Shown: positions 7,557-47,743, counted from the stretch's first letter. The stretch: DNA of 64,000 bases from a virus (IMGVR_UViG_3300028361_000018), one strand, 5' to 3'. Numbers and translations are program-made. The notes: generated by a model not told the origin, from the letters alone.

Positions 7557-7570
7557 CTAAGAGAGAATAA

Positions 7571-21810: not shown

Positions 21811-22296
21811 ATGATCAATATTGAAGTTACCGAAAAAAGCATAAAAGAATTAGTCAACAACAAGGAAGTTAATGTTATTGTTCACGGGTGTAACTGTTTC
21901 CACAAGATGATTGGTCCTGTATCCGATAGTCTCAGACAGCTAACTGACAATAATATATTAGTTGTAGATGTTGACGGCTCTGACTACGGCGACATTAATA
22001 AGTTAGGAACATGGACTAGCGGCGGCTATGAGTTTGCTGGTCACGCAGTAGACATAGTTAATCTCTACTGCTCGTATACCTACCCGGCTGCCGGATGCGA
22101 TGCTATACACTGGGCAAGTGTAAACGATGCTTTGGTTGAGATTATTTCAAAGGTCGAAAGCGGTCATGTAATGGGAATTGAACACATTGGCTTTAACTCA
22201 CTAGACAAAACTGAATTTATGAGTGTACTTGATGACATTGCAGACCGATACGACAACGAACTACCAGATGTTAACATAGTAGTGTTTGAAAAATGA
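21811..22296 (+). CDS. macro-domain-like protein (paralog of the 34889 ORF)
   Basis: 161 aa. VNVIVHGCNCFHKM matches IIVHGCSCQNRM of the 34889 ORF and the hCxxxCxMG.GIA N-terminal motif of TARG1/Poa1p-type macro domains. Confidence 0.4.
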   Translation: MINIEVTEKSIKELVNNKEVNVIVHGCNCFHKMIGPVSDSLRQLTDNNILVVDVDGSDYGDINKLGTWTSGGYEFAGHAVDIVNLYCSYTYPAAGCDAIHWASVNDALVEIISKVESGHVMGIEHIGFNSLDKTEFMSVLDDIADRYDNELPDVNIVVFEK

Positions 22297-25265: not shown

Positions 25266-25291
25266 TAGGAATACAAAAATAAAGGACCATT

Positions 25292-27055
25292 ATGAGATAT
25301 CAAGAGTTTAAGCTAAACGAGGGATACAAGGAAGTACAACAGAAGTTCAGTCAAGAAGCAGATCCTACTGAAGTAGCAAGTGCTTTTGACGTGTTCAAAA
25401 AACTAGTAAGTGCTAATCGCATCAAAGGCAACGAACGCAATATTGATTGGTGGGGCAAACAGGGGTGGCCTGCGTTTATTGAATACGTGACCGCCATTGA
25501 TGAACGACCTAGCGAGGCCGAACAAAAAGCTCGAAAAGGCAAAGGTGAAAGTCATGTACTAGAAGAAACTGCCGAGTGGTTTATTGTCGTCCCACTGGAC
25601 AAGGACGCCAGTTGCTTTCACGGTAAAAAAAGCGATTGGTGCACAACTAAGCCAACACAAGGCCATTTCGAATCTTACTTTCGCGACTATGACGTTACAC
25701 TGATCTACTTCTTTCGTCAGTCAGATGGAGCCATGTGGGCTATGGCAGTTTATCCCAATAAAAAAGCAGAGTATTTTGATCAGCAGGATGATTCGCTTGA
25801 TGATGAAGAATTCGAGAAGCAAACAGGTCTGGATCCCAACAAATACACCGAGCTAGTTGGCGGTAAAACTGATGTTGGACAAAAGGCCACTATTAATCGA
25901 GACATCATGAAGACCGACTTTAACACCTTAACAGGTTACATTAAAAAATTAGAACAAATGAGTAACCCACGCCGAAGTGCAAAGATTGAAACCTTACTGT
26001 TGAAAGTTAAAGACTCTAGACTAATAAAAGATTATTTAAGGACACTATATAATTATAGCGGACCAGTGGAGGTAGATCAACAACTACAAAGTCTAGTTGC
26101 TGGCGGTGATGGGGCGGTTGGTATTAGATTTTTGAACAATGTTAGTGTAAAGACAGTTAAAATACTAGGAAGGCAAGAAGATCTCAGGCATATGATGAAA
26201 AACTTGCGGCACCCTTCTAAAGAAGCGATGGAATACATTACCGACACAGGTAGACTAGCAGTCGCATACGCAAGATATGTGATCGAGGGTCAGTGGCCTC
26301 TAGGCGAAGCTGCTATTGCCGCAGATGCACAATCAGCGTTCAGCTATGCTAGAGAAGTAATCAACGACGGTGGTGGGCCTTGGGACGAGAAAGTTAGGTG
26401 GCCGCCCGGCGAAGCTGCTATTGCCACAAATGCAGAAGCAGCCTATATGTATGCTGACCAGATAATTAAAGGCCCCTGGCCCCCGGGAGAAGCTGCTATT
26501 GTTACCGATACACAATCAGCCTATAGATATGCCAGCGCAGTAATCAACAGAAGTACCTTTGGCAACGATCGTGTTAGGTGGCCGCCTGGTGAAGCTGCTA
26601 TTGCACAAGACGCATATACTTCTATTGACTACGCAAGAAATGTCGTAAGAGGCAGATGGCCACAAGGTGAGGCTGCTATTGCCTCAGATGCAGATACGGC
26701 CTATAAGTATGCTCGCGAGATAATTAAAGGAAGGTTTCCAGAAGGAGAAGCTGCTATTGCCCAAGATGCCGAAACAGCTTATAAATATGCTGACCTGATA
26801 ATTAAAGGAAGGTTTCCAGAAGGTGAAGCTGCTATTCTTACAGACGCATATACTTCTATTGACTACGCAAGAAATGTCATAAGAGGCAGATGGCCACAAG
26901 GTGAGGCTGTTATTGCCGCAGAGGCTGCAACTGCGTATGCCTATGCAAAGGATGTGATAAAAGGCAAATGGCCTCCAGGTGAAGCTGCTATTGATAAAGA
27001 TTATGATTTTAGAAGGGCGTATTCAAGCTTTTTAAATCCGATTCGTAACAATTAA
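25292..27055 (+). CDS. paralogous repeat-family protein 3 (N-domain + ~10 x 26-aa repeats)
   Basis: 587 aa. Repeats are nearly perfect, e.g. RWPQGEAAIASDADTAYKYAREIIKG / RFPEGEAAIAQDAETAYKYADLIIKG. 78-bp periodicity is visible in the DNA (gaagctgctattgc recurs). Confidence 0.65.
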   Translation: MRYQEFKLNEGYKEVQQKFSQEADPTEVASAFDVFKKLVSANRIKGNERNIDWWGKQGWPAFIEYVTAIDERPSEAEQKARKGKGESHVLEETAEWFIVVPLDKDASCFHGKKSDWCTTKPTQGHFESYFRDYDVTLIYFFRQSDGAMWAMAVYPNKKAEYFDQQDDSLDDEEFEKQTGLDPNKYTELVGGKTDVGQKATINRDIMKTDFNTLTGYIKKLEQMSNPRRSAKIETLLLKVKDSRLIKDYLRTLYNYSGPVEVDQQLQSLVAGGDGAVGIRFLNNVSVKTVKILGRQEDLRHMMKNLRHPSKEAMEYITDTGRLAVAYARYVIEGQWPLGEAAIAADAQSAFSYAREVINDGGGPWDEKVRWPPGEAAIATNAEAAYMYADQIIKGPWPPGEAAIVTDTQSAYRYASAVINRSTFGNDRVRWPPGEAAIAQDAYTSIDYARNVVRGRWPQGEAAIASDADTAYKYAREIIKGRFPEGEAAIAQDAETAYKYADLIIKGRFPEGEAAILTDAYTSIDYARNVIRGRWPQGEAVIAAEAATAYAYAKDVIKGKWPPGEAAIDKDYDFRRAYSSFLNPIRNN

Positions 27056-27066
27056 CAGGATCTATT

Positions 27067-28377
27067 ATGAGATATAACGAATTTAAACTAAACGAGGGCT
27101 TCAAGGAAGTACAACTGAAGTTTAGTCAGGAAGCAGATCCTACTGAGGTAGCGTCTGCTTTCGACGTGTTCAAAAAGTTGGTCAGTGACAATCGCATCTC
27201 AGGCCAAGAACGAAATATTGATTGGTGGGGCAAACAGGGGTGGTCCGCATTTAGTGAGTACGTGACTGCAATTGATGAAAGACCTAGTTCTTCTGAACAA
27301 AAGATGCGAAAAAACAAAGGCACGAGTCACGTAATAGAGGAATCTGCTGACTGGTTCATTGTAGTGCCACTAGACAAAGACGCCAGTTGTTTCTACGGCA
27401 AAAAAAGTAGCTGGTGTACCACCAAGCCAACGCAAGCACACTTCGAATCGTACTTCCGTGGCAAAGCTATTACACTGATCTATTTCTTCCGTCAGTCAGA
27501 TGGCGCCATGTGGGCTATGGCTGTTGCTCCAAATAAAGGAGCAGAATACTTTAATCAAAAAGACCAATCGCTTGATGTAATTGAATTCAACAAGCAGACA
27601 GGTCTAGACAGCAACAAGTACATTGAGATGGTAGGCGGTAAAACAGAGATAGGTAAAAAAACTGCTGCTAGTCGTAAAGAAATGCGAGCTAGTTTAAAAA
27701 ATCTAAAGGACTTTCTTAAAAAATTAGAACAAATGGATGCTCCGCAACGAAGTGCAAAAATAGAAACAATGATGTTACAGGTTAAGGATCCAAGATTAAT
27801 AGAAGAATATTTTAAAATATTACACAAGCAAAGTGGGCCAGTGGAAATAGATCAACAACTGCAAACTCTTGTTGCTAATATTTCTACTGATGCTGTTAGA
27901 TATTTACAAGACGTTAGTATAAAGACAGTTAAAATAATGGAAAGAAATGCTACGCCTGGTGAAGTAATAAATAATGTCCGAAATCCTACTAAACAAGTAC
28001 TTGCTTATATAGCTAGTAGAGGAGCATTGGCTGTTGCTTATGCTGCTATAGTAATAAAGGGTAGATGGCCTCTGGGCGAAGTTGTAATTGCACAAGATGG
28101 TTATTATGCAGCGTTATACGCCCGAGATATATTAAAACGCGAGTGGCCCGAAGCCGAATCTGCTATTGCCAACAATAGCTCCGGTTCATTTATGTATGCA
28201 CATGCAGTACTCAACAAAGCATGGCCTCCTGGAGAAGCTGCAATTGCCACGCACACTAATTACTCTTTTCGATATGCTACAGAAGTACTAGAAGATCGAT
28301 TTTTAAAAGGAGAGAATGCAATACGTAAAGCACAATCGGCGTGGAATGCATACAAAAAACGGTTTGGCATCGGTTAA
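27067..28377 (+). CDS. paralogous repeat-family protein 4 (N-domain + ~5 repeats)
   Basis: 436 aa. Same N-domain. C-terminus ...AYKKRFGIG. Confidence 0.65.
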   Translation: MRYNEFKLNEGFKEVQLKFSQEADPTEVASAFDVFKKLVSDNRISGQERNIDWWGKQGWSAFSEYVTAIDERPSSSEQKMRKNKGTSHVIEESADWFIVVPLDKDASCFYGKKSSWCTTKPTQAHFESYFRGKAITLIYFFRQSDGAMWAMAVAPNKGAEYFNQKDQSLDVIEFNKQTGLDSNKYIEMVGGKTEIGKKTAASRKEMRASLKNLKDFLKKLEQMDAPQRSAKIETMMLQVKDPRLIEEYFKILHKQSGPVEIDQQLQTLVANISTDAVRYLQDVSIKTVKIMERNATPGEVINNVRNPTKQVLAYIASRGALAVAYAAIVIKGRWPLGEVVIAQDGYYAALYARDILKREWPEAESAIANNSSGSFMYAHAVLNKAWPPGEAAIATHTNYSFRYATEVLEDRFLKGENAIRKAQSAWNAYKKRFGIG

Positions 28378-28403
28378 TAGGCATACAAAAATAAAGGACC
28401 AGT

Positions 28404-29594
28404 ATGAGATATAACGAGTTTAAATTAACCGAAGGTTACAAGGAAGTACAACAGAAGTTTAGCCAGGAGGCGGATCCTACAGAGGTAGCAAGTGCTTTTG
28501 ATATCTTCAAAAAATTAGTAAGTGCCAATCGCATCTCAGGTCAAGAAAGAAATATTGATTGGTGGGGCAAACAGGGATGGTCTGCATTTACTGAATACGT
28601 AACAGCCATTGACGAACGCCCTAGCTCTTCAGAACAAAAAGCTCGCACTAAAAAAGGAAATAGCTACGTATTAGAAGAAACTGACGAGTGGCTAATTGTA
28701 GTACCATTGGACAAGGACGCCAGTTGCTTTCACGGCAAGAACAGTGATTGGTGCACAACCAAACCCACTCAAAACCATTTTGAACAATACTTTCGTGACT
28801 TCAGCGTTACATTAATCTATTTCTTTCGTCAGTCAGATGGTGCTATGTGGGCCATGACAGTTAGTACAAAGAAAGGGCCAGAGTATTTTGACCAGCAAGA
28901 TACATCATTATCTATGGAAGAATTCAATCAACAAACAGGACTAGACAGCAACAAGTACGCCGAACTAGTCGGAGGAGAAACTGAGGTTGGCCAACAAGCC
29001 ACTGCTAGTCGAGACGTAATGAAAGCCGACTTAGAGAATCTAAAAAGTCTTATTGAAAAATTAGTACAAATGGATGCTCCGCGGCGCAGTGCAAAAATTG
29101 AAACAATGCTGTTGAGGGTTAAGGACGCAAAGTCAATAAAAAGATATTTAATAATACTATATCAAGCCAACGGTCTAGTCGAATTAGATCAACAACTACA
29201 AACTCTAGTTGCTACAAATGTAACGGGATCTATTAAATATTTGAAAGGTGTCACTGCAAAGACAATTAAACAACTAGAACAAAATAATGAAGACGAAGAT
29301 GAAGATGAAGATGGACCCAACTACGAAATATTCGGGGATTTACAAGACCTTACCAAAGAAGCGCTTGCTTATATAGCTAGCAAAAGCTATTTGTCCCTTG
29401 CGTATGCACTTCACGTAGTCGACGGTACGTGGCCACCGGGCGAGGCAGCTATTGCAAAAGATCCAGACATATCTTTAGAATACGCACAGAATGTAATTGG
29501 CGGAAGATTCCCTGCAGGTGAAGCTGCTATGACTAGTGACGAAAATATTAAGCGGTTGTATAAACTTACAATACTTAATCATGAAACAAGTTAA
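28404..29594 (+). CDS. paralogous repeat-family protein 5 (N-domain + 2-3 repeats, EDEDEDED linker)
   Basis: 396 aa. Same N-domain (DKDASCFHGKNSDWCTTKPT). Fewer repeats. Confidence 0.65.
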   Translation: MRYNEFKLTEGYKEVQQKFSQEADPTEVASAFDIFKKLVSANRISGQERNIDWWGKQGWSAFTEYVTAIDERPSSSEQKARTKKGNSYVLEETDEWLIVVPLDKDASCFHGKNSDWCTTKPTQNHFEQYFRDFSVTLIYFFRQSDGAMWAMTVSTKKGPEYFDQQDTSLSMEEFNQQTGLDSNKYAELVGGETEVGQQATASRDVMKADLENLKSLIEKLVQMDAPRRSAKIETMLLRVKDAKSIKRYLIILYQANGLVELDQQLQTLVATNVTGSIKYLKGVTAKTIKQLEQNNEDEDEDEDGPNYEIFGDLQDLTKEALAYIASKSYLSLAYALHVVDGTWPPGEAAIAKDPDISLEYAQNVIGGRFPAGEAAMTSDENIKRLYKLTILNHETS

Positions 29595-30255: not shown

Positions 30256-30465
30256 ATGGAATTCTTTTTAATGATGTTTGCTTTGATAGCAGGCTATATG
30301 CTCGGGTTTTCAAGCGGGCACCACAAGGGCACAATCGATGCGCACTCAGAAGTGGCAAGAGAGTGCCACAAGCTAGGAAAATTTTACGTGGGCAAAGAAG
30401 TTTTCACTTGCTCTGAGATTAACAAATGCGTCCCCAAGAGGAGAAACAATGAACAAGCTATGTGA
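30256..30465 (+). CDS. small membrane protein (69 aa)
   Basis: Hydrophobic N-terminus MEFFLMMFALIAGYMLGF. Confidence 0.35.
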   Translation: MEFFLMMFALIAGYMLGFSSGHHKGTIDAHSEVARECHKLGKFYVGKEVFTCSEINKCVPKRRNNEQAM

Positions 30466-31465
30466 AATGGTACACGGCAGTCACCTATACGGTTTAAACA
30501 CCGAGAACAGTGATATGGACTACAAAGGTGTGTTCTTGCCCACGTTGGACGAAATGGTCACAATGACAGCCAGCCACGAAATCCGACACAGTACAGGCGA
30601 TGCACACCAAAAAAACTCAAGTGAAGACGTAGACACTGTATTCTTTAGTCTACAAAAATTTATCAAAATGGCTTGTGACGGAGACACGGTGGCGATAGAC
30701 ATGATTCACTGTGACAATGCCCATCTTATCTCAAGCAGCCCTGTATGGGAGGCAATTGTAGCAAATCGTCACTTGTTCTACACCAAGAACATGAAGGCGT
30801 TTTTAGGCTACTGTCGCAAGCAAGCGTCAAAGTACGGTGTAAAAGGTTCAAGGCTCAAGTCCATGGAAGATGTGTTAACAGTGCTACACAGCGCATTACT
30901 TGTTAACCCCGAAGCCAGAATGGACGAGTCTACCAGCACAGAAACACAGTTGCTTGCTGTCGAAGCAGCTCACCCAGGAAAGGTCACTATTAAGGACGGG
31001 TTCTATAAAGGCAGTAGATTCGTTAACAAGAAAATTGTAGAAGTGTGTGACGCCAAGTATGACTTTACTACTAAAATATCATATGTTGTGGACTCACTAC
31101 AGAAAAAATATGACGCATACGGTCATCGTGCGCAATTGGCCAAAAACAACGAAAATATTGACTGGAAGGCCATTTCTCATAGTTTGCGGGCAGGGTACCA
31201 GTTACTAGAAATCTACGAAACTGGCGATCTAAAATACCCGTTAAAGTATCGTGAGTTCGTTCTTGCTGTCAAGCAAGGTAAATTAGACTTTACTGCTACT
31301 GTGCAACCTGCGTTAGAGGACGTAATTGCAAAAGTTGAACGGCTGGCAGCCATTGTGGTACTACCTGAAACTGTCAATCGCAAGTACTGGGAACAGTTTA
31401 TTGTAAACGTTTACGACGGATTCTATGACTACACTGAGCATAAAGAATCGTTAACTGCAAAATAG
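30449..31465 (+). CDS. Pol-beta-superfamily nucleotidyltransferase (isotype unknown; CCA-adding-enzyme-like or CD-NTase-like)
   Basis: 338 aa. N-terminal VHGSHLYGLNTENSDMDYKGVF is the [G]GS-x9-DxD minimal nucleotidyltransferase signature (compare GGAVRD...D.D of CCA enzymes), followed by a ~250-aa helical region. Confidence 0.5.
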   Translation: MNKLCEMVHGSHLYGLNTENSDMDYKGVFLPTLDEMVTMTASHEIRHSTGDAHQKNSSEDVDTVFFSLQKFIKMACDGDTVAIDMIHCDNAHLISSSPVWEAIVANRHLFYTKNMKAFLGYCRKQASKYGVKGSRLKSMEDVLTVLHSALLVNPEARMDESTSTETQLLAVEAAHPGKVTIKDGFYKGSRFVNKKIVEVCDAKYDFTTKISYVVDSLQKKYDAYGHRAQLAKNNENIDWKAISHSLRAGYQLLEIYETGDLKYPLKYREFVLAVKQGKLDFTATVQPALEDVIAKVERLAAIVVLPETVNRKYWEQFIVNVYDGFYDYTEHKESLTAK

Positions 31466-31567
31466 TGGTTGACGCTAAGCTAAAAGGCTGTAAAGTAGTA
31501 CTTGTTGTAGCAAGAAGCTACTTTTAAAAACTTAAACTTAAACTAAAATGAACCCAAAGGTAATACA

Positions 31568-32458
31568 ATGAAAAAGACAATGCTGAAACTATTTGCCGTA
31601 ATGGCAGTTACACTTGCAATGGTTGGCTGCGGCCAAGTTGTAGAGGTAGGGCCTGCTCAAGTTGCAAAGGTTATGTCTCAATCGGGATATAAAGCAAATA
31701 TTATTCCAACTTCCAAGTTCCGACTTGATATGTGTTATGCATATTGTGACAAGCTAGTTGTACTTGATGCCAGTGACCGCAGCTTTAAAGAAAGCATGGA
31801 CCTGTTTATGCCGCAAGACAAGCTGTTAATGACGTTCGAGATCCGGGCAACTATGTCACTTGCGTCTAAAGACTTTGAGCAGGTGTTTAATAAAGTACAG
31901 CCGGCACCAATGGGCGATAGCGAGCGTATGTATATGATTCCGCTAGAAAAAGTATATATGACCTACGCTCGAGATATCATCCGAGCCGAGGCACGGGAGT
32001 TCCTATCACAGTACACTATTGCAGAAATTGCAAGCTCACGTGAGGCCATTAACGCACAGCTATCAGAACGCCTATCTAAGAGCATCGCAGAACGAACTCC
32101 GTTTATGGTGCGATATATTGGCATTGCAGACCTTGCATACCCAACAATTATTGTGAAAGCGCAAGAAAATGCGGCAGAGCGTCGTGAGATGATTAACCAA
32201 GAAGCTGCACAGCTTGAAATCAGCAAGGTACAACTTGATCGTAAGCTACAGGAACAGACCATGCAGCGAAAAATCGACGTTGAAAAAGCTGAGGCCGAAG
32301 CACAAGTCAACAAGATCATGGGCGAGTCAATGACACCAGAGTACAAGGTGTACAAAAGCTTCCAAGTAATGGAATCAATGGCTAGCTCCAGTAACAAGGT
32401 GTTTATGCCAGCAGAGATGCTTAGCACAGTAGCAGGACAAATGCAACTAGGCAAGTAA
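31568..32458 (+). CDS. SPFH/Band-7 (HflK/C-like) domain lipoprotein
   Basis: 296 aa. Lipobox MKKTMLKLFAVMAVTLAMVGC. C-terminal coiled-coil EAE/AQ-rich region typical of SPFH proteins. Confidence 0.55.
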   Translation: MKKTMLKLFAVMAVTLAMVGCGQVVEVGPAQVAKVMSQSGYKANIIPTSKFRLDMCYAYCDKLVVLDASDRSFKESMDLFMPQDKLLMTFEIRATMSLASKDFEQVFNKVQPAPMGDSERMYMIPLEKVYMTYARDIIRAEAREFLSQYTIAEIASSREAINAQLSERLSKSIAERTPFMVRYIGIADLAYPTIIVKAQENAAERREMINQEAAQLEISKVQLDRKLQEQTMQRKIDVEKAEAEAQVNKIMGESMTPEYKVYKSFQVMESMASSSNKVFMPAEMLSTVAGQMQLGK

Positions 32459-32466
32459 ACTTAACT

Positions 32467-32489
32467 GCTAGGGGACTTGCTCCCCTAGC
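32467..32489 (+). terminator. hairpin terminator-like element
   Basis: GCTAGGGGA-CTTG-CTCCCCTAGC perfect 9-bp stem directly after the stop of the SPFH gene, followed by a T-containing tract. Confidence 0.5.
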
Positions 32490-32516
32490 ATACTCTTTGT
32501 TAATAAGGATTATAAA

Positions 32517-32885
32517 ATGGAATACGTAATTGCCTTCGCGCAAACATTTGTGCCTAAAATGTTGTTTGGTTTATTTGCTTGGGTTGCAATCAGCGCAGTA
32601 ATGAAGCAGTTTAAAGAGTTTAAGGGTAAGCCAGTCTACAAAAACAATAGCTGGTACCTTGGTGTTTTTTTGCTAATAGCACTTGTAATGACTGCGTCCA
32701 GTACTAGTATTTCGTACAAGCACCAGACGTTTGATGCAGACCAGGAAAGCTATCAAATCGAACTAATCAAGCAGCAAGAACAAGAACGCACTGACCTAGT
32801 TATTGAAGATCGAACACGCAAAGATTACACAGTAACGGATGAAGAATGGAAAGATAACTCCAGCTACACCAAGGGCGTAAAATGA
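32517..32885 (+). CDS. membrane protein (122 aa, two predicted TM helices)
   Basis: Hydrophobic segments [10 protein letters not shown] and [13 protein letters not shown]. Confidence 0.4.
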
Positions 32886-33172
32886 ACAAGCACCAGGGTT
32901 TTACACTAATCGAGTTAATGATTGTTGTTGCTATTATTCTTATCTTAGCAGCAATTGCTATTCCGGCTTATCAAGAGCATAACAACCCCACGACATCAGA
33001 ACAAAAGTACACACAATGTATCAACGGTGTTAAGTTTACAACAGCTAACACTCCTACACAAATTATCGGTGAAGACGGGCGCGGAATTAGTTGCAATAGT
33101 AACTCAGCTACTAGTAACCCAGCGCCCAGTGACACCTATAACAACACCTTCGAAAACACCTGGAATAATTAA
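32882..33172 (+). CDS. type IV pilin-like (prepilin N-terminus) protein
   Basis: 96 aa. [33 protein letters not shown] is a textbook class-III signal peptide / N-methylation motif (G|[13 protein letters not shown]). Confidence 0.7.
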
Positions 33173-33178
33173 TACAAG

Positions 33179-33207
33179 TTGACAGGGTTGACAATCTGTC
33201 ATACACT
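33179..33207 (+). promoter_or_regulatory. sigma70-like promoter with tandem TTGACA boxes (TTGACAGGGTTGACA ... TACACT)
   Basis: TTGACA at 33179 and 33188. TACACT 33202-33207. TGACAGGGTTGACAATCTGTCA forms a hairpin. Confidence 0.45.
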
Positions 33208-33240
33208 CTATACACACTAACAACACAACAAGAGATCAAT

Positions 33241-33771
33241 ATGCATGCTTCACTAAATATCAATTCATATATTGGTGACGGCTTTCAAAAAGTCTGCTCA
33301 GTAACTTCTGACAATTCTGTAGACAATAAATGGTTTTATACTGATATTAATCCAGACCTAATGTTTGCAGATCACAGATCATGGATCTATTTTATTGTAG
33401 TTGATGAAGAAGTTTGGAAGGTAGGCGAAACAGGAAACCCGTTAGGCATTCGTGCAAAGAACCCAGAAGCAACACAACCGTTAACCGGAACACGCGGACG
33501 GCTGGGTCGTTACCGATCCGGCGACTATCGTGTAGGAACATACGGAGACACTGACTGGGACATTCGAGTACGATTAAACGATGTAATAGCAGATGGCAGT
33601 AACGTAGAATTTTGGGCAAGACAGTGCCCCATTGATAAAGTAGAAGTCACAGTAGGAGGCAAACCTTTCACTGTGGGCACAGCGTATCATAAAGAACTTG
33701 AAATGGCGCACTTGGATTATATCTTTAACAGCGTCGACGAGCTTCCTACGCTCAACAAGTTTAGAAAATAG
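33241..33771 (+). CDS. hypothetical protein (176 aa)
   Basis: ORF track. Confidence 0.4.
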   Translation: MHASLNINSYIGDGFQKVCSVTSDNSVDNKWFYTDINPDLMFADHRSWIYFIVVDEEVWKVGETGNPLGIRAKNPEATQPLTGTRGRLGRYRSGDYRVGTYGDTDWDIRVRLNDVIADGSNVEFWARQCPIDKVEVTVGGKPFTVGTAYHKELEMAHLDYIFNSVDELPTLNKFRK

Positions 33772-33781
33772 ACAAAACAAG

Positions 33782-33810
33782 TTGACAAGGACGTCAACTG
33801 AGCTTATACT
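33782..33810 (+). promoter_or_regulatory. sigma70-like promoter TTGACA-N17-TATACT (near-identical copy at 39478)
   Basis: GTTGACAAGGACGTCAACTGAGCTTATACTGTA. The -35 box is embedded in a GTTGAC/GTCAAC hairpin. Confidence 0.5.
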
Positions 33811-33842
33811 GTATACACACTAAATTAAAAAGGTAAGTTACA

Positions 33843-34001
33843 ATGGATACTGAAGGACTAGGCAAAGGCATTAGCAACATTGCTATCTGGGGAGCAGTGG
33901 CAGCAGTAGCATACTTCACCCAAGGTACCGGATGGGTCGTTGGCTTTGCATTCTTTGCAGCTTGCTGTACCTACGAAATGTACAACAAAGAAGGCAAATA
34001 G
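33843..34001 (+). CDS. small hydrophobic protein (52 aa)
   Basis: ATG 33843..TAG 34001, below the track cutoff. Gly/Ala-rich TM-like sequence. Sits directly downstream of the promoter. Confidence 0.3.
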   Translation: MDTEGLGKGISNIAIWGAVAAVAYFTQGTGWVVGFAFFAACCTYEMYNKEGK

Positions 34002-34002
34002 T

Positions 34003-34887
34003 ATGACAATCACAGTGACATCATATACTAACGGCAAACACAACGTTCCATACGAATCGTTTACGTTTAGTGGCGGTGAAGAGCACATTCGATTTAGTGG
34101 TCCTAGGCGACACGCAGCGTGGGATGTGCATATTACTGCTATCCTTACCAGCTCAGCTGAGATTATCAAATTGGCTATGGTCACTGACGCAATCCGTAGA
34201 CACGCAGACAATGTAAAGATCACACTAAAAATGCCTTACATTCCCTACGCTCGTCAAGACCGTGTATGCGTCGAAGGAGAAGCGCTCGGCATTCGTGTGT
34301 TCTGTGATATAATCAACGCTATGCAATTCGATCGCGTACACGTACTAATGCCTCACAGTGAAGTTGCTCCAGCATTGCTTAACAACTGTGACGAAAACCT
34401 GTATACTTCAAACTGGAATCTTTTTATTCCAGACTCTATTCCAAGAGATTTGAAAAATGATCTCATTATTGTATCGCCAGATGCAGGCGCAATGAAACGA
34501 ACGCTTGGGTTTGCCCAAATGCTTAATACTACAAAACACCATCGCCTGCCGCAAGTGGACGTTGTAATGGCAGATAAGGTGCGTGATGTGGTCACAGGAC
34601 AGATCACTAGCACAGCAGTACACGCAGGTCCAGAGCTTGTAGGCAAAGTTTGCCTCATTTACGATGACATCTGCGACGGTGGATTTACGTTTATTAAGCT
34701 GGCAGAAGCACTACGCGAAAAGGGTGCTAGTAAAGTAATCCTAGCTGTGCCGCACGGTATCTTCAGCAAAGGATTTACTGAAATTGCTAAAGTTATTGAT
34801 CAAGTGATTACAACCAATATTTTTAAAGATAACATTCCAGAACACACCAGCATTCCTGTTAGTGTGTTCGACATTACAAGGGCGTAA
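34003..34887 (+). CDS. prs: ribose-phosphate pyrophosphokinase (PRPP synthetase)-like
   Basis: Track ORF 33940-34887. Likely start ATG 34003. MPYIPYARQDR..., IVSPDAGAMKR, CLIYDDICDGGFT parallel the Prs motifs (YARQDR; DxGG PRPP-binding loop). Confidence 0.65.
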   Translation: MTITVTSYTNGKHNVPYESFTFSGGEEHIRFSGPRRHAAWDVHITAILTSSAEIIKLAMVTDAIRRHADNVKITLKMPYIPYARQDRVCVEGEALGIRVFCDIINAMQFDRVHVLMPHSEVAPALLNNCDENLYTSNWNLFIPDSIPRDLKNDLIIVSPDAGAMKRTLGFAQMLNTTKHHRLPQVDVVMADKVRDVVTGQITSTAVHAGPELVGKVCLIYDDICDGGFTFIKLAEALREKGASKVILAVPHGIFSKGFTEIAKVIDQVITTNIFKDNIPEHTSIPVSVFDITRA

Positions 34888-34888
34888 T

Positions 34889-35419
34889 ATGAAATACGTA
34901 GACGGCAATTTGTTAGACATAGCAGAGCAAGGCAAATTCGATATTATTGTACACGGTTGTAGCTGCCAGAATAGAATGGAAAGTGGTATTGCTAAACAAA
35001 TTCGTGATCGCTACCCGAAAGCATATATGGCAGATCAGCTAACACAGAAAGGCGACAGCGACAAACTAGGGTGCTTCACGCAAGCAAACATTGACGGTAC
35101 CTCTATGTTTCCACCCGAAAAGGGAAGTCGTGGCTTATATCAATACCGATACTCGTTTACGCTACTCAATGCATACACACAGGATCACTACGGCTACGAC
35201 CACTCAATATATGTTAACTACGAAGCTGTATCACAAGTGTTTAAGCAGATTAAACTGTTGTACGATATGAATCCAATGGCTCCTGTGCGAATTGGCATTC
35301 CAATGATAGGAAGCGGAGCAGCAAACGGAGACTGGACCACAATAGAAAGCATTATTGCTAGTATGAACTTTAGTGATCTTACAGTAGTATGTTTTAACGG
35401 AGACAGCGATGATACCTGA
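34889..35419 (+). CDS. macro-domain protein (TARG1/Poa1p-like ADP-ribose processing enzyme)
   Basis: Track ORF 34862-35419. ATG at 34889. IIVHGCSCQNRMESGIAKQIRDRYP and IGIPMIGSGAANGDW parallel TARG1 (AHCISEDCRMGAGIA ... PRIGCGLDRL). Confidence 0.5.
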   Translation: MKYVDGNLLDIAEQGKFDIIVHGCSCQNRMESGIAKQIRDRYPKAYMADQLTQKGDSDKLGCFTQANIDGTSMFPPEKGSRGLYQYRYSFTLLNAYTQDHYGYDHSIYVNYEAVSQVFKQIKLLYDMNPMAPVRIGIPMIGSGAANGDWTTIESIIASMNFSDLTVVCFNGDSDDT

Positions 35420-35759
35420 GAGTTTAAGAGACTATAAATCAAATCGAACACTAATCGACGAGATGGACTCTGCTGAAACTGAGATTGATAAGCTTCGTTT
35501 AAAGATCAAAGTAAATCAGGGCAAGCTAAAGTACAAGTGTCCTGAATGTAAAAAGTTCTCAACACTGCGCGATACTGATGCTATACAAAAAAATTACTAC
35601 GTAGAACCACACGGATGCACTGGAGGAGACTATTGGGATCGAGACGGAATTATGTGGAATTGTCCTAAATGCAATCAGAAGCAGAGTCTAAAATACGAAG
35701 AACTCACTAGCTGGCAGTCAATGTCACATCACTTTAAATCAATTACAGACGAAAAATAA
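35409..35759 (+). CDS. zinc-ribbon protein (116 aa)
   Basis: CPECKK ... CPKCNQ cysteine pairs. Confidence 0.4.
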   Translation: MIPESLRDYKSNRTLIDEMDSAETEIDKLRLKIKVNQGKLKYKCPECKKFSTLRDTDAIQKNYYVEPHGCTGGDYWDRDGIMWNCPKCNQKQSLKYEELTSWQSMSHHFKSITDEK

Positions 35760-35772
35760 CTAGGAGAAACAT

Positions 35773-36624
35773 ATGAGATTAGACGCCCTTTCAGCAATCG
35801 ACTTTTACAAAGCAGATCACAGACGCCAGTACCCAGAAGGTACTGAGCTAGTCTACAGCAACTTTACACCACGCAGTATGCGCCTGTACAAAGGCAACGC
35901 TACTGAGACTGTAGTGTTCGGACTACAGGGATTCTGCAAATGGTTCCTCATTGATATGTGGAACGAAACTTTCTTCAACAAGCCAAAGGCAGAAGTTGTA
36001 GCCAAGTATCAAAGAAGACTTGACTCTAGCTTAGGTGACGGCGCTGTGCCAATGGATCACGTCGAAGCATTACACGACTTGGGCTATTTGCCTTTAGAGA
36101 TTAAAGGTCTGCCAGAAGGCGTAAGTGTGCCGGAAAAAGTAGCTGTTCTTACAGTCAAGAATACAGTACCAGAGTTTTACTGGCTGGTTAACTACATTGA
36201 AAGCGTGATGAGCTCAGAGCTGTGGAAGCCAAGCGTAGTTGCTACGCTCGCAAAAGAGTATCGCGAAATACTTACAAAGTATGCTAATCTAACTGGCGCA
36301 TCACTCGATGGCGTTCCTATTCAGTGTCACGACTTTAGCTTCCGGGGAATGAGTGGACTACACGATTCCGCAAGCTCAGGGGCCGGGCACTTGCTGTCCT
36401 TTGTGGGCACAGACGGTGTTCCATCAATTGACTATTTAGAAGAGTACTACAACGCAGATCCAGCTAAAGAAATGATTGGGTGTAGCATTCCTGCAACCGA
36501 ACATTCGGTCATGAGCTGTAACGTAGGAAACTTATCTAAGTTAATCGGCGAGCAGCTGGAAGAAAATCCCAACCTAAGTCTCGAAGACGCGCACCGACGT
36601 GTTCTTCAGATAGCCAAGGGTTAG
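35773..36624 (+). CDS. nadV: nicotinamide phosphoribosyltransferase (NAMPT/NadV), N-terminal fragment
   Basis: 283 aa. DFYKADHRRQYP, SFRGMS, GHLLSFVGTDGV...IPATEHSVMS align with the N-terminal ~330 residues of NAMPT (FKGTDTV...VPAAEHST). The ORF then runs into unrelated sequence and overlaps the antisense HNH gene. Confidence 0.75.
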   Translation: MRLDALSAIDFYKADHRRQYPEGTELVYSNFTPRSMRLYKGNATETVVFGLQGFCKWFLIDMWNETFFNKPKAEVVAKYQRRLDSSLGDGAVPMDHVEALHDLGYLPLEIKGLPEGVSVPEKVAVLTVKNTVPEFYWLVNYIESVMSSELWKPSVVATLAKEYREILTKYANLTGASLDGVPIQCHDFSFRGMSGLHDSASSGAGHLLSFVGTDGVPSIDYLEEYYNADPAKEMIGCSIPATEHSVMSCNVGNLSKLIGEQLEENPNLSLEDAHRRVLQIAKG

Positions 36625-37261
36625 TTAACATTTGCTTAGTAACAATCCTGTCAGGATTTGAGCAAAAGTTGCGCACTGTTCCGGCGGTATAAGGAGTGCT
36701 TCGGGCTGCTTGCGGAGCAGACCCGAAAGTTCCTTTAGGGGTTACATAGTGCCCCTTAAAGTTAGCATTCCTTTCAGGATGCGCAAGTTTTGTATTTCTT
36801 ATCTTGTCGACAACGTCAGGTGTTCTTGGTATGTTATATAAGTGAGATTCTTTACCACCTTTATGAGGGTTGTTAGTTTTAATAAGTTGTCTAATAATAT
36901 TAATGTGCTCAGGCGATAGTGTTTTTCCAGAATGTAAGTTAGAATTAGCAATAGCAAATTGCTCTTTAGCAGTCTGAAATGTTCGAGAAGTAATTTTGTA
37001 GTATCGTTGAACATCACCGTTAAGTTGATTGTTCATTGCCCAGAAAGCAAATTTTAGTTTATCAGATTCTGGATATATCTTACAAAGCATCCTGTGACAT
37101 ATAAAATGTACACGAGCAGACAAGTATACTAAATTAGTAGAACAGTTGGTTCCGCCGATCGACTTAGGAACAATATGGTGCCTTTCAGAATAAACGTCTT
37201 TTGGCTTGACACGTTGCCCAAACTGTGCTATTATAGCGTTATAAGTTTTTATGTAATTCAT
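36536..37261 (-). CDS. HNH homing endonuclease inserted in the NAMPT gene (antisense orientation)
   Basis: 241 aa, - strand. ERHHIVPKSIGGTNCSTNLVYLSARVHFICH is an HNH core shared with the 7571 and 49150 ORFs. Lies exactly in the gap between the two NAMPT fragments. Confidence 0.7.
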   Translation of the reverse strand: MNYIKTYNAIIAQFGQRVKPKDVYSERHHIVPKSIGGTNCSTNLVYLSARVHFICHRMLCKIYPESDKLKFAFWAMNNQLNGDVQRYYKITSRTFQTAKEQFAIANSNLHSGKTLSPEHINIIRQLIKTNNPHKGGKESHLYNIPRTPDVVDKIRNTKLAHPERNANFKGHYVTPKGTFGSAPQAARSTPYTAGTVRNFCSNPDRIVTKQMLTNPWLSEEHVGARLRDLGWDFLPAARRLT

Positions 37262-37306
37262 TATTTTACACTCCGTTATGTGTATTTATACAAAAAAGGA
37301 AATTTT

Positions 37307-38116
37307 ATGTCGTATACCGAAAAAGAAATCATGAACTACTGCGAGCAGGAACTGTTTCGGCACTTGGTCGAAGACCTGTATCCAACAGGGCTTGTATCTA
37401 TTGTTAGTGACACGTGGGACTTTTGGACTGTGGTTACTGAGTATATTCCTGCGCTCAAAGACGTTATTATGGCTCGCCAACCAAACGCCATTGGCCTTAA
37501 CAAGGTAGTGTTGCGTCCAGACAGCGGAGACCCTGTAAAGATCATCACAGGCTACACTGAAGACGAATATTACATCGAAGAAGACGGTGAGCTCATTAGC
37601 TACAAGGACGGTATCACACTGTCTCCTGCAGAAGTCAAAGGCGCTATCGAATGCCTGTGGGACACTTTTGGTGGTACGCTAACCGACTGTGGTTATAGAG
37701 AATTAGACGAGCATATTGGCTTAATCTATGGCGATAGCATTACGCTAGAACGCGCACACGCAATTCTACGCAGACTGGCAGACAAAGGCTTTGCTAGCAG
37801 CAACGTTGTTCTTGGAGTGGGGTCATACACTTACCAGCACAACACACGCGACAGCATGGGGTTTGCAATGAAGGCAACCTATGGTGAGGTCAACGGAGTA
37901 GGACGTGAAATCTTTAAAGACCCAGCAACAGACAGCGGCACAAAGAAGAGTGCTAAAGGTTTGTTACGTGTTGATCTAGTAGACGGAGAATACGTAATGC
38001 AAGACCAAGTAACGTGGGCTGAAGAAGCAGGCGGTGAGCTAAAGACTGTGTTTAAGGACAGCAAGCTCTACAACCAAACCAGCTTGGGTGAGATCAGGCA
38101 GCGTATACAGGGTTAA
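37307..38116 (+). CDS. nadV: nicotinamide phosphoribosyltransferase (NAMPT/NadV), C-terminal fragment
   Basis: Track ORF 37175-38116. ATG 37307 with AAGGA RBS. TEKEIMNYCEQ...VSIVSDTWD...LRPDSGDP...KGLLRV align with NAMPT residues ~330-490 (HEKDAFEH...VSVVSDSYD...IRPDSGNP...KGRL). Confidence 0.75.
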   Translation: MSYTEKEIMNYCEQELFRHLVEDLYPTGLVSIVSDTWDFWTVVTEYIPALKDVIMARQPNAIGLNKVVLRPDSGDPVKIITGYTEDEYYIEEDGELISYKDGITLSPAEVKGAIECLWDTFGGTLTDCGYRELDEHIGLIYGDSITLERAHAILRRLADKGFASSNVVLGVGSYTYQHNTRDSMGFAMKATYGEVNGVGREIFKDPATDSGTKKSAKGLLRVDLVDGEYVMQDQVTWAEEAGGELKTVFKDSKLYNQTSLGEIRQRIQG

Positions 38117-38126
38117 TCTTAGAGGT

Positions 38127-38155
38127 TGACAATCAGCGTGTTGTAGTATATACTT
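38127..38155 (+). promoter_or_regulatory. sigma70-like promoter whose -10 lies in the loop of a terminator hairpin
   Basis: TTGACA 38127-38132, TATACT ~38149-38154, nested within the 38135-38184 hairpin. Confidence 0.45.
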
Positions 38156-38184
38156 AGAGTATAATACACAACACGCTTTTTTTT
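38135..38184 (+). terminator. intrinsic terminator (10-bp stem + T8)
   Basis: AGCGTGTTGT ... ACAACACGCT perfect inverted repeat followed by TTTTTTTT (38177-38184). Confidence 0.6.
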
Positions 38185-38195
38185 AGGAGAATAAA

Positions 38196-38528
38196 ATGAT
38201 CACAGCAGGCGATGTTTACAATCGGATGATTAAGGCAGGTGAAGTAGACAATACTGCGCTAGACGGATTTCTAGAGCAAATTATTATTCCTCGATTTGAG
38301 AAAGCGCAAAAAAATAAGATTAAACTAACAACTGCGGTGTTTATCATTAACCCACTGTTTGCTGGCAAAGTTCCTGCCGAGATTGTCGATTTGTTTAATA
38401 GTCGCGGGTTTAGAATGGAATTCGAATGCGAGGACAGGCCTTGCGGAAACTCTTACTACGAACTAGAGATTCCGCCCCAAGGCGAAGATAGTTGCGGATT
38501 CGGCAAGGAGCATGACTGGAACAAATAA
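38196..38528 (+). CDS. hypothetical protein (110 aa)
   Basis: ORF track. Confidence 0.4.
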   Translation: MITAGDVYNRMIKAGEVDNTALDGFLEQIIIPRFEKAQKNKIKLTTAVFIINPLFAGKVPAEIVDLFNSRGFRMEFECEDRPCGNSYYELEIPPQGEDSCGFGKEHDWNK

Positions 38529-38998
38529 TGAAATACTATGCCGGAATCGGCTCTCGGGTAACTCCTGATAATATACAGACCGACATGACCAACATTGCTA
38601 GTATATTAGCAGACAACGGGTATATATTGCGCAGTGGAGGAGCACTTGGCGCAGATCGTGCGTTTGAAAACGGAGCCAAAAACCGAGCAGAAATATTTCT
38701 TCCTCGGGCAGATTCGCCTGCATGGACACTAGTGTTTACTCAACATTTTCATCCTAATCCTAGTGCGTTGTCAGATAAGGCGTGGATGTTGATGAACCGC
38801 AATGCAATGCAGATACTAGGACGAGACGGTGACACTCCCGTTGACTTTATAATTTGCTGGACTAGAGACGGAAAAGCAAGTGGTGGGACAGGGCAAGCTC
38901 TGCGCATTGCTGCTGATTTTGGAATTACTGTATATAATATGTTTAACAACGACCATGTTAGTGAACTTGCTAACAAACTAACAAATATTAAGGAATAA
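38528..38998 (+). CDS. hypothetical protein (156 aa)
   Basis: ORF track. Confidence 0.4.
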   Translation: MKYYAGIGSRVTPDNIQTDMTNIASILADNGYILRSGGALGADRAFENGAKNRAEIFLPRADSPAWTLVFTQHFHPNPSALSDKAWMLMNRNAMQILGRDGDTPVDFIICWTRDGKASGGTGQALRIAADFGITVYNMFNNDHVSELANKLTNIKE

Positions 38999-39001
38999 AA
39001 T

Positions 39002-39481
39002 ATGAACGTTAAATTTGTAAGTCGAGGAGATGCCAAAAAGTACATCAGCAAAAATCACTTCGCTGACGCCGATTGCGACTTAGTTAGTATTTCAGATACC
39101 CATAAAGAAGCTGAACAGATGAAGGAGTTGTGGCTAGCTAATAAAAAACACGCGAACGCCGCTGTGTTTCTTCGGTTTGCAGATATGGACGACAGTAGCA
39201 GCGGATTTGATTCTAAAAAAGCCGAAACTATCTGCAACTTCTTAGAGCAATCCTTTAGGAAGAAAAAAGACGTGATAGTACATTGCTTTGCTGGAATTTC
39301 ACGAAGTGGTGCTGTTGCTAAGTTTGCTAACGAGTATTACGGACTAAATGACGTATACTTAGACACTTACGCAGGACATAACTTGTGGGTGTTCTACACT
39401 TTGTTAGAGCAAGCAGGAGTACCCACCCAACGACAATATTACGGTGATCTAGAGAAGCGCCTCGGAAAAGAAAACAGTTGA
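39002..39481 (+). CDS. dual-specificity / protein-tyrosine phosphatase-like
   Basis: 159 aa with VIVHCFAGISRSGAV = HCx5R(S/T) P-loop of Cys-based phosphatases. Confidence 0.7.
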   Translation: MNVKFVSRGDAKKYISKNHFADADCDLVSISDTHKEAEQMKELWLANKKHANAAVFLRFADMDDSSSGFDSKKAETICNFLEQSFRKKKDVIVHCFAGISRSGAVAKFANEYYGLNDVYLDTYAGHNLWVFYTLLEQAGVPTQRQYYGDLEKRLGKENS

Positions 39482-44384: not shown

Positions 44385-44726
44385 ATGAATTATGACAAAT
44401 ATAAATTAGTTAGAGATAAAATTCCTGCTTTAGTAAAATCTGATAGATTATCTAATAGCGAACCACTTCGACCCTGTGAACGTGTACTAGACAAAAGTGC
44501 ATATTTGATGCTGCTTAATCGTAAACTTAAAGAAGAAGTTGCTGAACTGGACGAAGCGCTAGGGCACGGAAATCAGGATGCTATAGAAAATGAACTAGCA
44601 GATGTACACGAAGTTCTAGTTGCAATTAGTGATGCTTATAGGTGCAGAGATGTTGTGGACCTGGCTAGCGAAAAAGCTCACAAGCTGGGTGGTTTCTACC
44701 AAGGACATATATTAAAAATAGGTTGA
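44385..44726 (+). CDS. MazG-like nucleotide pyrophosphohydrolase domain protein
   Basis: 113 aa. KLVRDKIP N-terminus and LKEEVAELDEA ... ELADV acidic helices resemble MazG / HisE-type NTP pyrophosphatases. Confidence 0.5.
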   Translation: MNYDKYKLVRDKIPALVKSDRLSNSEPLRPCERVLDKSAYLMLLNRKLKEEVAELDEALGHGNQDAIENELADVHEVLVAISDAYRCRDVVDLASEKAHKLGGFYQGHILKIG

Positions 44727-47474: not shown

Positions 47475-47743
47475 ACCATTAGCAGGTTAAAAAGTCTGCA
47501 AAGAGATAAATAAACGTATAACAAAGGAACTAACGCTTTTAATGAAACTTACTACACTGCTGTCATCACTAACAACTACTTGGAATAATTCGAGTAATAG
47601 TGTTATGGTGGGTTTGGTGTAGAGCGAAAGAACAGTTCGACACTTTACAAGCCCACTGCACACGCACTGGGCTTTTTTTGTGTAAGAAATTTGTAGCATT
47701 ACTAGTATTGAAAATAACAACTATCAATTCTGAGCTGATAAAT

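Follow-up and report, generated by a model that had tools for sequence, protein, structure and literature searches.

The 64,000-nt stretch of IMGVR_UViG_3300028361_000018 analysed here (the window; all positions given are those of the whole stretch) comes from an uncultured phage and carries, between 33782 and 38116, an operon of genes related to nicotinamide and ADP-ribose (ADPR) metabolism. The initial annotation read this locus as three contiguous genes encoding a phosphoribosyl pyrophosphate (PRPP) synthetase-like protein (Prs), a macro-domain protein and a nicotinamide phosphoribosyltransferase (NAMPT) that would make nicotinamide mononucleotide (NMN), with no NMN adenylyltransferase (NMNAT) in sight. 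The locus raises two questions: which pathway do these enzymes serve, and can the NAMPT-like gene, which is cut in two by a homing-endonuclease cassette, still encode an enzyme? The operon probably rebuilds NAD+ from ADPR and nicotinamide against NAD-destroying defences by the NARP1-AP pathway, with its Namat enzyme encoded in two pieces.

Within NARP1, the enzyme Adps turns ADPR and ATP into ADP-ribose pyrophosphate (ADPR-PP) and AMP, and Namat converts ADPR-PP and nicotinamide to NAD+ (Osterman 2024). NARP1-AP adds a Poa1p-like macro-domain phosphatase, Adpp, that turns the ADPR-1''-phosphate made by aRES into ADPR, as verified in Vibrio phage Gary (bioRxiv 10.64898/2026.01.28.702374). The NARP2 pathway consists of Nampt plus NMNAT.

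The first enzyme gene encodes the Prs-like protein, which matches the Pfam families Pribosyltran_N, Pribosyltran and Pribosyl_synth, as well as phrog_619 at 2e-79. The Gary operon, ICP1 Adps, E. coli Prs and a KVP40-like NadV from phage PVA8 served as references for comparison. The protein is 34% identical to the verified Adps proteins of ICP1 and Gary and 26% identical to E. coli Prs. Adps is distinguished from Prs by a remodelled PP loop (ICP1 C215-S220, DDICDGAASF), the hairpin residue Lys185 and the loss of the Prs helices alpha11-alpha12 (PMC13586617). The PP loop of the window protein reads DDICDGGFTF, where E. coli Prs reads DDMIDTGGTL, and DDICDGGxTF is the consensus in the Namat-adjacent Adps genes of the loci retrieved. 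Its catalytic hairpin reads KVRDVVTGQI, with the Lys kept, against KRRPRANVSQV in E. coli Prs, and HGIFSKG is found at the site of the Prs motif HPIFSGN. The C-terminal helices of Prs are missing, and the protein stops where Adps stops, E. coli Prs being 25 amino acids longer. The equivalents of the adenine contacts F18 and R87 of ICP1 are kept, but E. coli Prs keeps both too. The NCBIfam models TIGR01251 and NF002320 give the window protein 127 and 108 bits, the verified ICP1 and Gary Adps 98-100 and 80-81 bits, and E. coli Prs 423 and 533 bits. The window protein is below the NF002320 cut-off (108 vs 297) and fails all seven Prs equivalog models listed as well as the remaining subfamily models; the one model that it passes is TIGR01251, which is broad at the subfamily level (127 vs a cut-off of 113). 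By these scores, motifs and missing helices the ORF groups with Adps and away from Prs, which contradicts the PRPP synthetase proposed initially, and its product is of the Adps type with a predicted ADPR-PP synthetase activity.

The gene taken for a single NAMPT is present as two ORFs separated by an HNH endonuclease gene. On the phrog_448 profile (500 positions) the N-half covers positions 15-261 and the C-half 263-494, so the two ORFs are collinear halves of one gene; the homology to NAMPT is upheld, and the single gene is not. The best Protein Data Bank matches of both halves are the SPbetaL1 Namat entries 9W5X and 9W5W, with two to three times the Nampt scores. The N-half matches residues 11-252 of 9W5X with 283 bits (human NAMPT, 134 bits) and the C-half residues 255-487 with 215 bits, whereas human and Xanthomonas Nampt structures score 92-135 bits with the N-half and 70-83 bits with the C-half. 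The selectivity-clamp helix of Namat has the signature GSX-phi1-X-phi2-X-phi3-TRD with an aromatic X (PMC12774641), which the C-half motif GSYTYQHNTRD fits, and the KVP40-like NadV reads GMGGGLLQQLDRD at this site. The Nampt-type loop GxGGGLLQ..[TD]RD, present as GGGLLQQLDRD in the KVP40-like NadV, is absent from the window protein.

The N-half conserves D10, Y12, R37, HDFSFRG, GTD and PATEHSVM, and the C-half conserves RPDSGD and IYGDSIT. Residue R37 aligns with the clamp-loop stacking residue R40 of SPbetaL1, where Arg, Lys or Tyr is expected. The Nampt-like catalytic core (SPbetaL1 D13, Y15, F189, R192, D215, the His motif, R306 and D308) is kept and distributed across both halves. Identity is 50-53% to verified Namats vs 32% to KVP40-type NadV, and tblastn identities against phage genomes are bimodal, with a Namat group at 33-57% and a NARP2 group at 25-30%. 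The NCBIfam model NF006629 fails to tell Namat from NadV. The gene context agrees with that of Namat: the N-half ORF starts 886 nt downstream of Adps, inside a single operon, and an IMG/VR scan with the N-half found 59 loci (none above 66% identity), all 59 with an Adps homologue immediately upstream of the Namat relative. Close relatives were found in a collection of 5.8 billion proteins and not in IMG/VR. In the Adps clade, 97% of members have a Namat homologue in the immediate vicinity (Osterman 2024). The "NAMPT" is therefore of the Namat type by motif, score and context, and it is predicted to make NAD+ from ADPR-PP where the initial annotation had given it an NMN-making role.

The third enzyme gene, between Adps and Namat, encodes a macro protein. 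It finds yeast Poa1p with phmmer (2.6e-5) and, over its full length, with a 32-sequence family profile (1.5e-7). The AlphaFold model of the protein (pLDDT 83) has Poa1p, DarG and TARG1 as its best folds (Foldseek Poa1p 6e-9). Poa1p is thus the top Protein Data Bank match by sequence, profile and fold, which bears out the TARG1/Poa1p-like macro domain of the initial annotation. The ORF also matches phrog_335 at 5e-45 and Chazly21 gp177 by BLASTP (E 3e-12, 27% identity over 158 amino acids), the latter being 98% identical to the verified Gary Adpp KNV71_gp137. Precomputed PF01661 matches are carried by 5 of 51 homologues (55-63% identity). The NARP1-AP survey assigned Adpp to macro proteins within two genes of NARP1 genes that have Poa1p as the closest characterised homologue and PF14519, PF01661 or PF20016 by HHpred (bioRxiv 10.64898/2026.01.28.702374). 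The protein shares the HxCxC-motif His (Poa1p H23) with yeast Poa1p and human TARG1/OARD1; Poa1p differs in that identity is about 20% and that its S30 and F152 are replaced by Arg and Ala in the window protein, as in the phage Adpp family. The protein is a Poa1p-like relative of Gary Adpp and a predicted ADPR-1''-phosphate phosphatase.

The second macro paralogue proposed at 21811-22296 is homologous to the Adpp family (hhalign probability 97%, E 5e-11, residues 10-111, 100 columns) and retains HGCNC and DxxKLG. The glycine-rich loops GIA and GxPxIGxGxxGGDW are lost, with the invariant G33, A35 and G136-W149 loop residues replaced, and Pfam hmmscan is negative for macro domains here as well. 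It probably does not act as an equivalent phosphatase, and a putative binding role is possible.

Together these assignments outline a pathway in which host defence NADases would split NAD+ into nicotinamide and ADPR or, for the aRES type, ADPR-1''-phosphate. Adpp would strip the 1''-phosphate from the latter, Adps would move pyrophosphate from ATP onto ADPR to give ADPR-PP, and Namat, made as two polypeptides that would reassemble non-covalently, would couple ADPR-PP with nicotinamide directly to NAD+, with no need for an NMNAT. The earlier idea of a phage that recycles nicotinamide and ADPR against NAD-depleting defences fits this assignment, and the PRPP-to-NMN chemistry that left a missing NMNAT unexplained is replaced by NARP1. 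Pfam or PHROG scans of about 55 ORFs of the window, and tblastn with NadR, PnuC and NrtR queries, turned up no NMNAT, NadR, PnuC or Nudix protein; the initial annotation had likewise seen no NMNAT, and its absence is explained since NARP1 makes NAD+ directly.

The operon most resembles NARP1-AP of Vibrio phage Gary, which has these three enzyme families in identical order, Adps-Adpp-Namat, on one strand, and it shares the Namat motif, the Adps PP loop and the Adpp motifs HxCxC, RM..GIA, DxxKLG and GxPxIGxGxAxGDW. The sequences are far apart, since Adpp is just 27%, Adps 34% and Namat 50% identical to its Gary counterpart. Unlike Gary, the window carries additional zinc-ribbon and 52-amino-acid ORFs and a two-piece Namat with an antisense HNH gene between the pieces. 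The NARP1 operons of Bacillus phage SPbetaL1, E. coli phage Bas63 and Vibrio phage ICP1 have the Adps-Namat pair with catalytic and specificity residues in common (Osterman 2024; PMC12774641; PMC13586617); unlike the window, they comprise two genes, with no macro phosphatase and an uninterrupted Namat.

The Namat gene is cut into two genes by what is, from its sequence, a selfish homing-endonuclease cassette. The uninterrupted state is seen in L069, a JGI metagenome contig of 25 kb; it is fully syntenic with the window at 92% nucleotide identity and encodes Namat as a single ORF of 511 amino acids. In a blastn comparison with this empty-site allele, the 92% homology ends at window position 36503 and restarts at 37348. 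The L069 loop reads ATEHSVM-CMGGQTGEM-ELFRHL, its DNA at the uninterrupted site, a candidate HNH target, is ACCGAGCACAGCGTAATGTGCATGGGCGGACAAACC, and the insertion point is in the loop just behind the catalytic-histidine motif PATEHSVM. Four successive synonymous codon changes in TEHSVM (36499-36510; TCG vs AGC for Ser) mark the left edge, so the incoming DNA carried its own copy of this motif; homing with co-conversion, or a cleavage-immune allele, would be expected to show such a pattern.

The cassette supplies the N-half with a tail of 36 amino acids and a stop codon (SCNVGNLSKLIGEQLEENPNLSLEDAHRRVLQIAKG) and the C-half with a new head of 12-14 amino acids (MSYTEKEIMNYCEQ), together with a promoter-like site, a ribosome-binding site (RBS) and an ATG for the C-half. 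The N-half tail had been considered a native, lineage-specific loop resembling the long Namat loop of FBKp34, a candidate overturned by the comparison with L069, which assigns the tail to the inserted cassette. The HNH ORF matches phrog_655 at 2e-41, has an intact HH...N...H motif and overlaps the N-half tail coding sequence by 89 nt at its 3' end; it is distantly related to endonucleases that reside in DNA polymerase genes of Ackermannviridae. Scanned permissively with Rfam, 35500-38300 gave no intron family, only two chance-level sRNA/miRNA matches outside the insert. An endonuclease ORF thus lies between collinear complete ORFs whose tails are missing from the uninterrupted allele, with no intron or intein, and the split Namat obeys the known principle of genes left in pieces by free-standing homing endonucleases.

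The C-half would be transcribed from the extended -10 promoter candidate about 70 nt upstream of its start, whose counterpart in the diverged contig L071 is TGtTATAAT. On the opposite strand, TATAAATA at 37283-37290 lies in a 32-nt block before the HNH start. The motif is not enriched across the window (6 found vs 5.4 expected), so a late-promoter role is tentative. The HNH gene, which is antisense and may be expressed late, could influence how the C-half is expressed.

Whether the two halves still work was addressed through the distribution and evolution of the split. The N-half is identical on six contigs from several samples, and the three contigs retrieved all carry the split, which is not an assembly artefact since it is unchanged (99-100% nucleotide identity) on independent contigs from three samples. 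The ratio of nonsynonymous to synonymous substitution rates (dN/dS) against L069 is 0.08 for the N-half, 0.135 for the C-half, 0.15 for Adps and 0.14 for Adpp. The Logan contig L071 is far more diverged, with amino acid identities of 58% for Adps, 64% for Adpp and 56% for the zinc-ribbon protein, and it has the same split, comprising an N-half with the same kind of tail, the antisense HNH gene, the overlap and the C-half head. Synonymous sites between L071 and the window are saturated (proportion of synonymous differences, pS, 0.65-0.82). The N-half core has a proportion of nonsynonymous differences (pN) of 0.11 at a pS of 0.72, the N-half dN/dS is 0.05, and the HNH proteins are 73.5% identical in amino acids (dN/dS about 0.1, pN 0.16-0.17). 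The split gene is probably functional, because L071 keeps the split and the tails under strong purifying selection where a dead gene would drift. Two unrelated phage contigs, L072 and L073, have an HNH_3/NUMOD4 gene on the same strand that interrupts Namat in the equivalent loop, and both halves are intact. An AlphaFold model of the concatenated halves has a Nampt-like fold (pLDDT 84), with helices predicted at low confidence in the tail and the head.

A precedent for such an enzyme is NrdA of Aeromonas phage Aeh1 (nrdA-a / mobE / nrdA-b), which is split yet active, with insertion-derived tails that are essential (PMC3045599). In both Aeh1 NrdA and the window Namat, the enzyme gene is broken up beside the sequence coding for the active site by a free-standing endonuclease of the HNH family, the halves are separate ORFs, and the new C- and N-terminal tails came with the insertion and are missing from intact homologues. 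Unlike in Aeh1, the target in the window is a counter-defence enzyme and not ribonucleotide reductase, and the endonuclease gene is antisense and overlaps the N-half tail by the 89 nt given above. By analogy with NrdA, non-covalent association of the two Namat halves most likely restores an active enzyme, and on the sequence comparisons a functional two-chain Namat is favoured.

The main rival to this reading, which we regard as improbable, is that the HNH insertion killed Namat, the halves being a young pseudogene and the pathway broken in this phage. The gene is physically interrupted, and the intact gene of the 92%-identical L069 means that the interruption could be recent. Both halves are nevertheless intact ORFs with all catalytic and clamp residues present, and the C-half has its own RBS, start and promoter-like site. 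The retention of the split in L071 at saturated synonymous divergence, the independent splits in the same loop of L072 and L073 that keep both halves, and the Aeh1 NrdA precedent speak against a pseudogene as well. Two points count against a functional two-chain Namat: assembly of the halves is modelled with low confidence at the junction (pLDDT only 48-76 across residues 240-300, which include the tail and head helices), and the split of L071 could stem from separate acquisitions of related cassettes and not from joint inheritance.

Less probable again is a NARP2-like salvage, in which the Prs-like protein makes PRPP, the NAMPT makes NMN, an NMNAT of the host or elsewhere in the phage genome finishes the synthesis and the macro protein cleans up ADPR derivatives. 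Vibrio phage KVP40, with its NARP2 enzymes NadV (Nampt) and NatV (NMNAT/Nudix), likewise restores NAD+ with a Nampt-fold enzyme. The window proteins are members of the PRPS and NAMPT superfamilies and clear two broad models, TIGR01251 and NF006629 (the latter with scores summed), and their closest bacterial relatives are Acinetobacter prs-nadV operons, which are classically taken as PRPP/NMN salvage. These Acinetobacter genes themselves bear Adps and Namat motifs. The Adps-type motifs and scores of the window protein, the Namat clamp motif in place of the GMGGGLLQQLDRD of KVP40-type NadV, the missing GGGLLQ loop and an identity to that NadV of just 32% all oppose this alternative, as does the fact that NARP2 requires an NMNAT and that no NMNAT, NadR or Nudix protein lies within the 64-kb window.

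Several observations run counter to NARP1-AP itself. The equivalent of the adenine contact Phe92 is Cys in the window Adps, a position that is variable inside the Adps clade, since it is Met in FBKp34 and Cys in Acinetobacter, both Namat-linked homologues. Position 7 of the clamp motif is His and not Tyr or Phe; His is also found there in loci L013 and L014. Pfam hmmscan at E<=0.01 calls no macro domain on the macro ORF. The genome is at least 106 kb long and the window covers 64 kb of it, so an NMNAT elsewhere is possible. Namat enzymes retain some PRPP-dependent NMN synthesis in vitro (PMC12774641), a point in favour of the NARP2-like alternative, and the PRPP-to-NMN reaction is thus possible as a side activity.

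Removal of the intervening sequence from the RNA, as a group I or II intron, or from the protein, as a split intein, to give a single-chain Namat is very improbable: introns and inteins are common in phage genes and in contig L024 an intein-like insert stands in frame at PA|TEHS, a few codons upstream, but the Rfam scan found no intron family, the endonuclease is encoded on the opposite strand, the N-half has a stop codon, the C-half opens with an RBS and ATG, and the tails (36 and 12-14 amino acids) are too short for split-intein halves and are without Cys/Ser-1 and Asn-Cys/Ser/Thr junctions.

Other insertions were observed in related Namat genes. The L024 gene (1269-3971) is a 900-amino-acid ORF in which the insert lies exactly at this position; its first residue is Cys, it ends in GN before Thr, and it has two LAGLIDADG-like motifs. 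Pfam detected no intein or LAGLIDADG model in the insert, and the Adpp of L024 is 60% identical to that of the window. In L023 (7416-8714) and L051 (7230-8300), Namat is interrupted inside the clamp motif (GS / YTYQ) by 1.1-1.3 kb with an endonuclease-like ORF; that of L023 matches Pfam T5orf172/MUG113 and DUF723, and that of L051 has no Pfam match and was likened by eye.

Two further loci bear on the wider distribution of these pathways. The best INPHARED match to the N-half, L003 (4099-7316), is recorded as Acinetobacter phage MD-2021a but is in fact a contig of bacterial chromosome, as it contains ABC transporter, AraC and other host genes, and on it are prs-nadV and a Nudix-wHTH (NrtR-like) gene. 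Because both of its enzymes bear Adps and Namat motifs, bacterial NARP1 may be what the classical prs-nadV operons of Acinetobacter encode. Klebsiella phage FBKp34 (L002, 1012-7047) has NARP1 with an HNH_3/NUMOD4 endonuclease gene between Adps and an intact Namat, and also, in divergent orientation, genes for a PnuC-like transporter and a NadR-like enzyme (NARP3-type), so that two NAD+ restoring pathways are adjacent.

The features of the locus are collected in Table 1. Almost every gene of the window is encoded on the + strand, and the ORFs of the operon are tightly packed between two promoter-like sites, the first of which is 88% conserved in L071 and the second of which, at 38126-38154 right behind the operon, repeats the TTGACA-17-TATACT-type pattern. 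Shine-Dalgarno-like sequences precede every + strand ORF of the operon. This arrangement makes it likely that 33782-38116 is a single early-type operon encoding NARP1-AP. The enzyme genes annotated initially do lie in one operon, with correct coordinates for the Prs-like (34003-34887) and macro (34889-35419) ORFs; the 52-amino-acid ORF, the zinc-ribbon ORF, the HNH gene and the split of Namat had been missed.

Table 1. Features of the NARP1-AP locus and the second macro-like gene of the window
Feature	Position	Strand	Remarks
Sigma-70-like promoter candidate, TTGACA-17-TATACT	33782..33810	+	Operon head; 11/12 consensus match; predicted function
Small hydrophobic ORF, 52 aa	33843..34001	+	Stop 1 nt ahead of Adps start
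Adps, PRPS-like ADP-ribose pyrophosphate synthetase (predicted), 294 aa	34003..34887	+	Pfam, PHROG, motifs, NCBIfam scores
Adpp, Poa1p-like macro-domain protein, predicted ADP-ribose-1''-phosphate phosphatase, 176 aa	34889..35419	+	
Zinc-ribbon ORF, two CxxC pairs, 116 aa	35409..35759	+	Between macro gene and Namat N-half
Namat N-half, 283 aa	35773..36624	+	Native residues 1-~243, then cassette-derived tail
Inserted homing-endonuclease cassette, ~845 nt	36499..37347		Replaces ~36 nt (loop CMGGQTGEM) of uninterrupted allele
HNH homing endonuclease, 241 aa	36536..37261	-	Antisense to operon; phrog_655
Promoter candidate, extended -10, TTGACA-17-TGcTATTAT	37206..37234	+	~70 nt upstream of C-half start; 11/12 match; predicted
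32-nt block identical in L071	37265..37296	-	TATAAATA ... GGAG before HNH start; candidate T4-type late promoter and RBS
Namat C-half, 269 aa	37307..38116	+	Own RBS (AAGGAA) and ATG
Second, degenerate macro-like paralogue	21811..22296	+	Outside operon

The 52-amino-acid ORF is present in L069 (96% amino acid identity, dN/dS 0.08) and in L074, and it is missing at the corresponding L071 locus. The zinc-ribbon ORF has only weak Zn-ribbon Pfam matches and is kept at the same position in L069 (97%, dN/dS 0.15) and in L071, and by this comparison it evolves under purifying selection within the phage lineage. Among 5.8 billion proteins it has only two close clusters, confined to this phage lineage, and 397 distant small Zn-ribbon relatives in a family without annotation; judged by this distribution, it is not a general NARP1 partner. 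A megablast search of 33800-38300 against 50,697 phage records gave zero matches, so the locus has no close sequenced relative there.

Behind the operon, the next transcription unit (38126-39481) encodes a 110-amino-acid ORF (dN/dS 1.3 vs L069), a DprA/SLOG-like protein (phrog_768, 3e-47) and a DSPc-like phosphatase (PF00782, 5e-8). The same trio trails Namat in L069, L070, L075 and L076, and a SLOG-like gene trails Namat-Adpp in the Pakpunavirus-like loci L050, L052 and L054-L056. A sequence search of the Protein Data Bank with the DprA/SLOG-like protein returned nothing significant, and a functional link of the trio to ADPR/NAD chemistry is possible. Upstream (30449-33771), a gene for a nucleotidyltransferase of the RlaP type, which is no NMNAT, is accompanied by genes for an SPFH/Band7 lipoprotein and for a type IV pilin-like protein bearing an N-methylation motif, and by a 176-amino-acid phrog_1111 'endonuclease' ORF that has a promoter-like site of its own. 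In L069 a 407-amino-acid subtilisin-like (Peptidase_S8) gene (7066-8289) lies between the pilin-like and 176-amino-acid ORFs; it is absent from the window at about 33172-33241, an indel with flanks 89-92% identical.

Elsewhere in the window, five more homing-endonuclease-like ORFs (HNH, GIY-YIG/NUMOD3) are found at 7571-8626, 49150-49917, 51031-51684, 54414-55064 and 55360-56016, and one of the HNH ORFs, of the same PHROG family as the Namat HNH, lies between nrdA (5304-7556) and nrdB (8639-9748). Five phrog_17056 paralogues of 396-587 amino acids (9789-11207 and 23529-29594), four of them in tandem, have a conserved N-terminal region of about 220 residues that shows 73-81% DNA-level likeness to the L069 copies. 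The auxiliary metabolic genes at 17877-19111 and 47600-48451 are of cyanophage type and encode a heme oxygenase (PF01126, 8e-20), a ferredoxin-dependent bilin reductase (PF05996, 4e-20) and an alternative/plastoquinol-type oxidase (PF01786, 1e-82), odd company for Namat relatives from Acinetobacter and Marinomonas and for a type IV pilin-like gene. The MazG-like pyrophosphatase placed at 44385 in the initial annotation has a weak Pfam match (5e-5, 44385-44726), and its proposed link to the module is putative.

The NARP1-AP pathway is already known, and the uncultured phage of the window adds to it a new member that is rather divergent. As far as searched, the fragmentation of Namat, the empty-site allele and the conservation of the split are undescribed, and no paper in the searched literature pairs Namat with homing endonucleases or inteins. 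Annotation pipelines still name NARP1 and NARP1-AP genes as ribose-phosphate pyrophosphokinase, phosphatase and nicotinamide phosphoribosyltransferase, and labelling of this style is the reason that the earlier reading had a pathway with a "missing" enzyme, a gap that NARP1-AP closes. Searches demanding a full-length Namat would also undercount NARP1. The intact L069 allele and the fragmented window allele form a natural matched pair for studying fragmentation tolerance and tail-mediated reassembly. As a NARP1-AP carrier, the uncultured phage is predicted to resist NAD+ depletion of the SIR2, TIR, DSR and aRES types. The evidence is about evenly balanced on a wider proposal, namely that Namat in this phage may be a naturally two-chain enzyme, its halves held together by cassette-derived helical tails as in Aeh1 NrdA, and that the most conserved motifs of Namat may serve as recurrent landing sites for selfish elements: the HNH genes after PATEHSVM in the window, L071, L072 and L073, the intein-like insert of L024 and a T5orf172-type ORF within the clamp motif of L023 and L051. 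If this is true, homing and co-conversion during co-infection would spread counter-defence alleles among phages.

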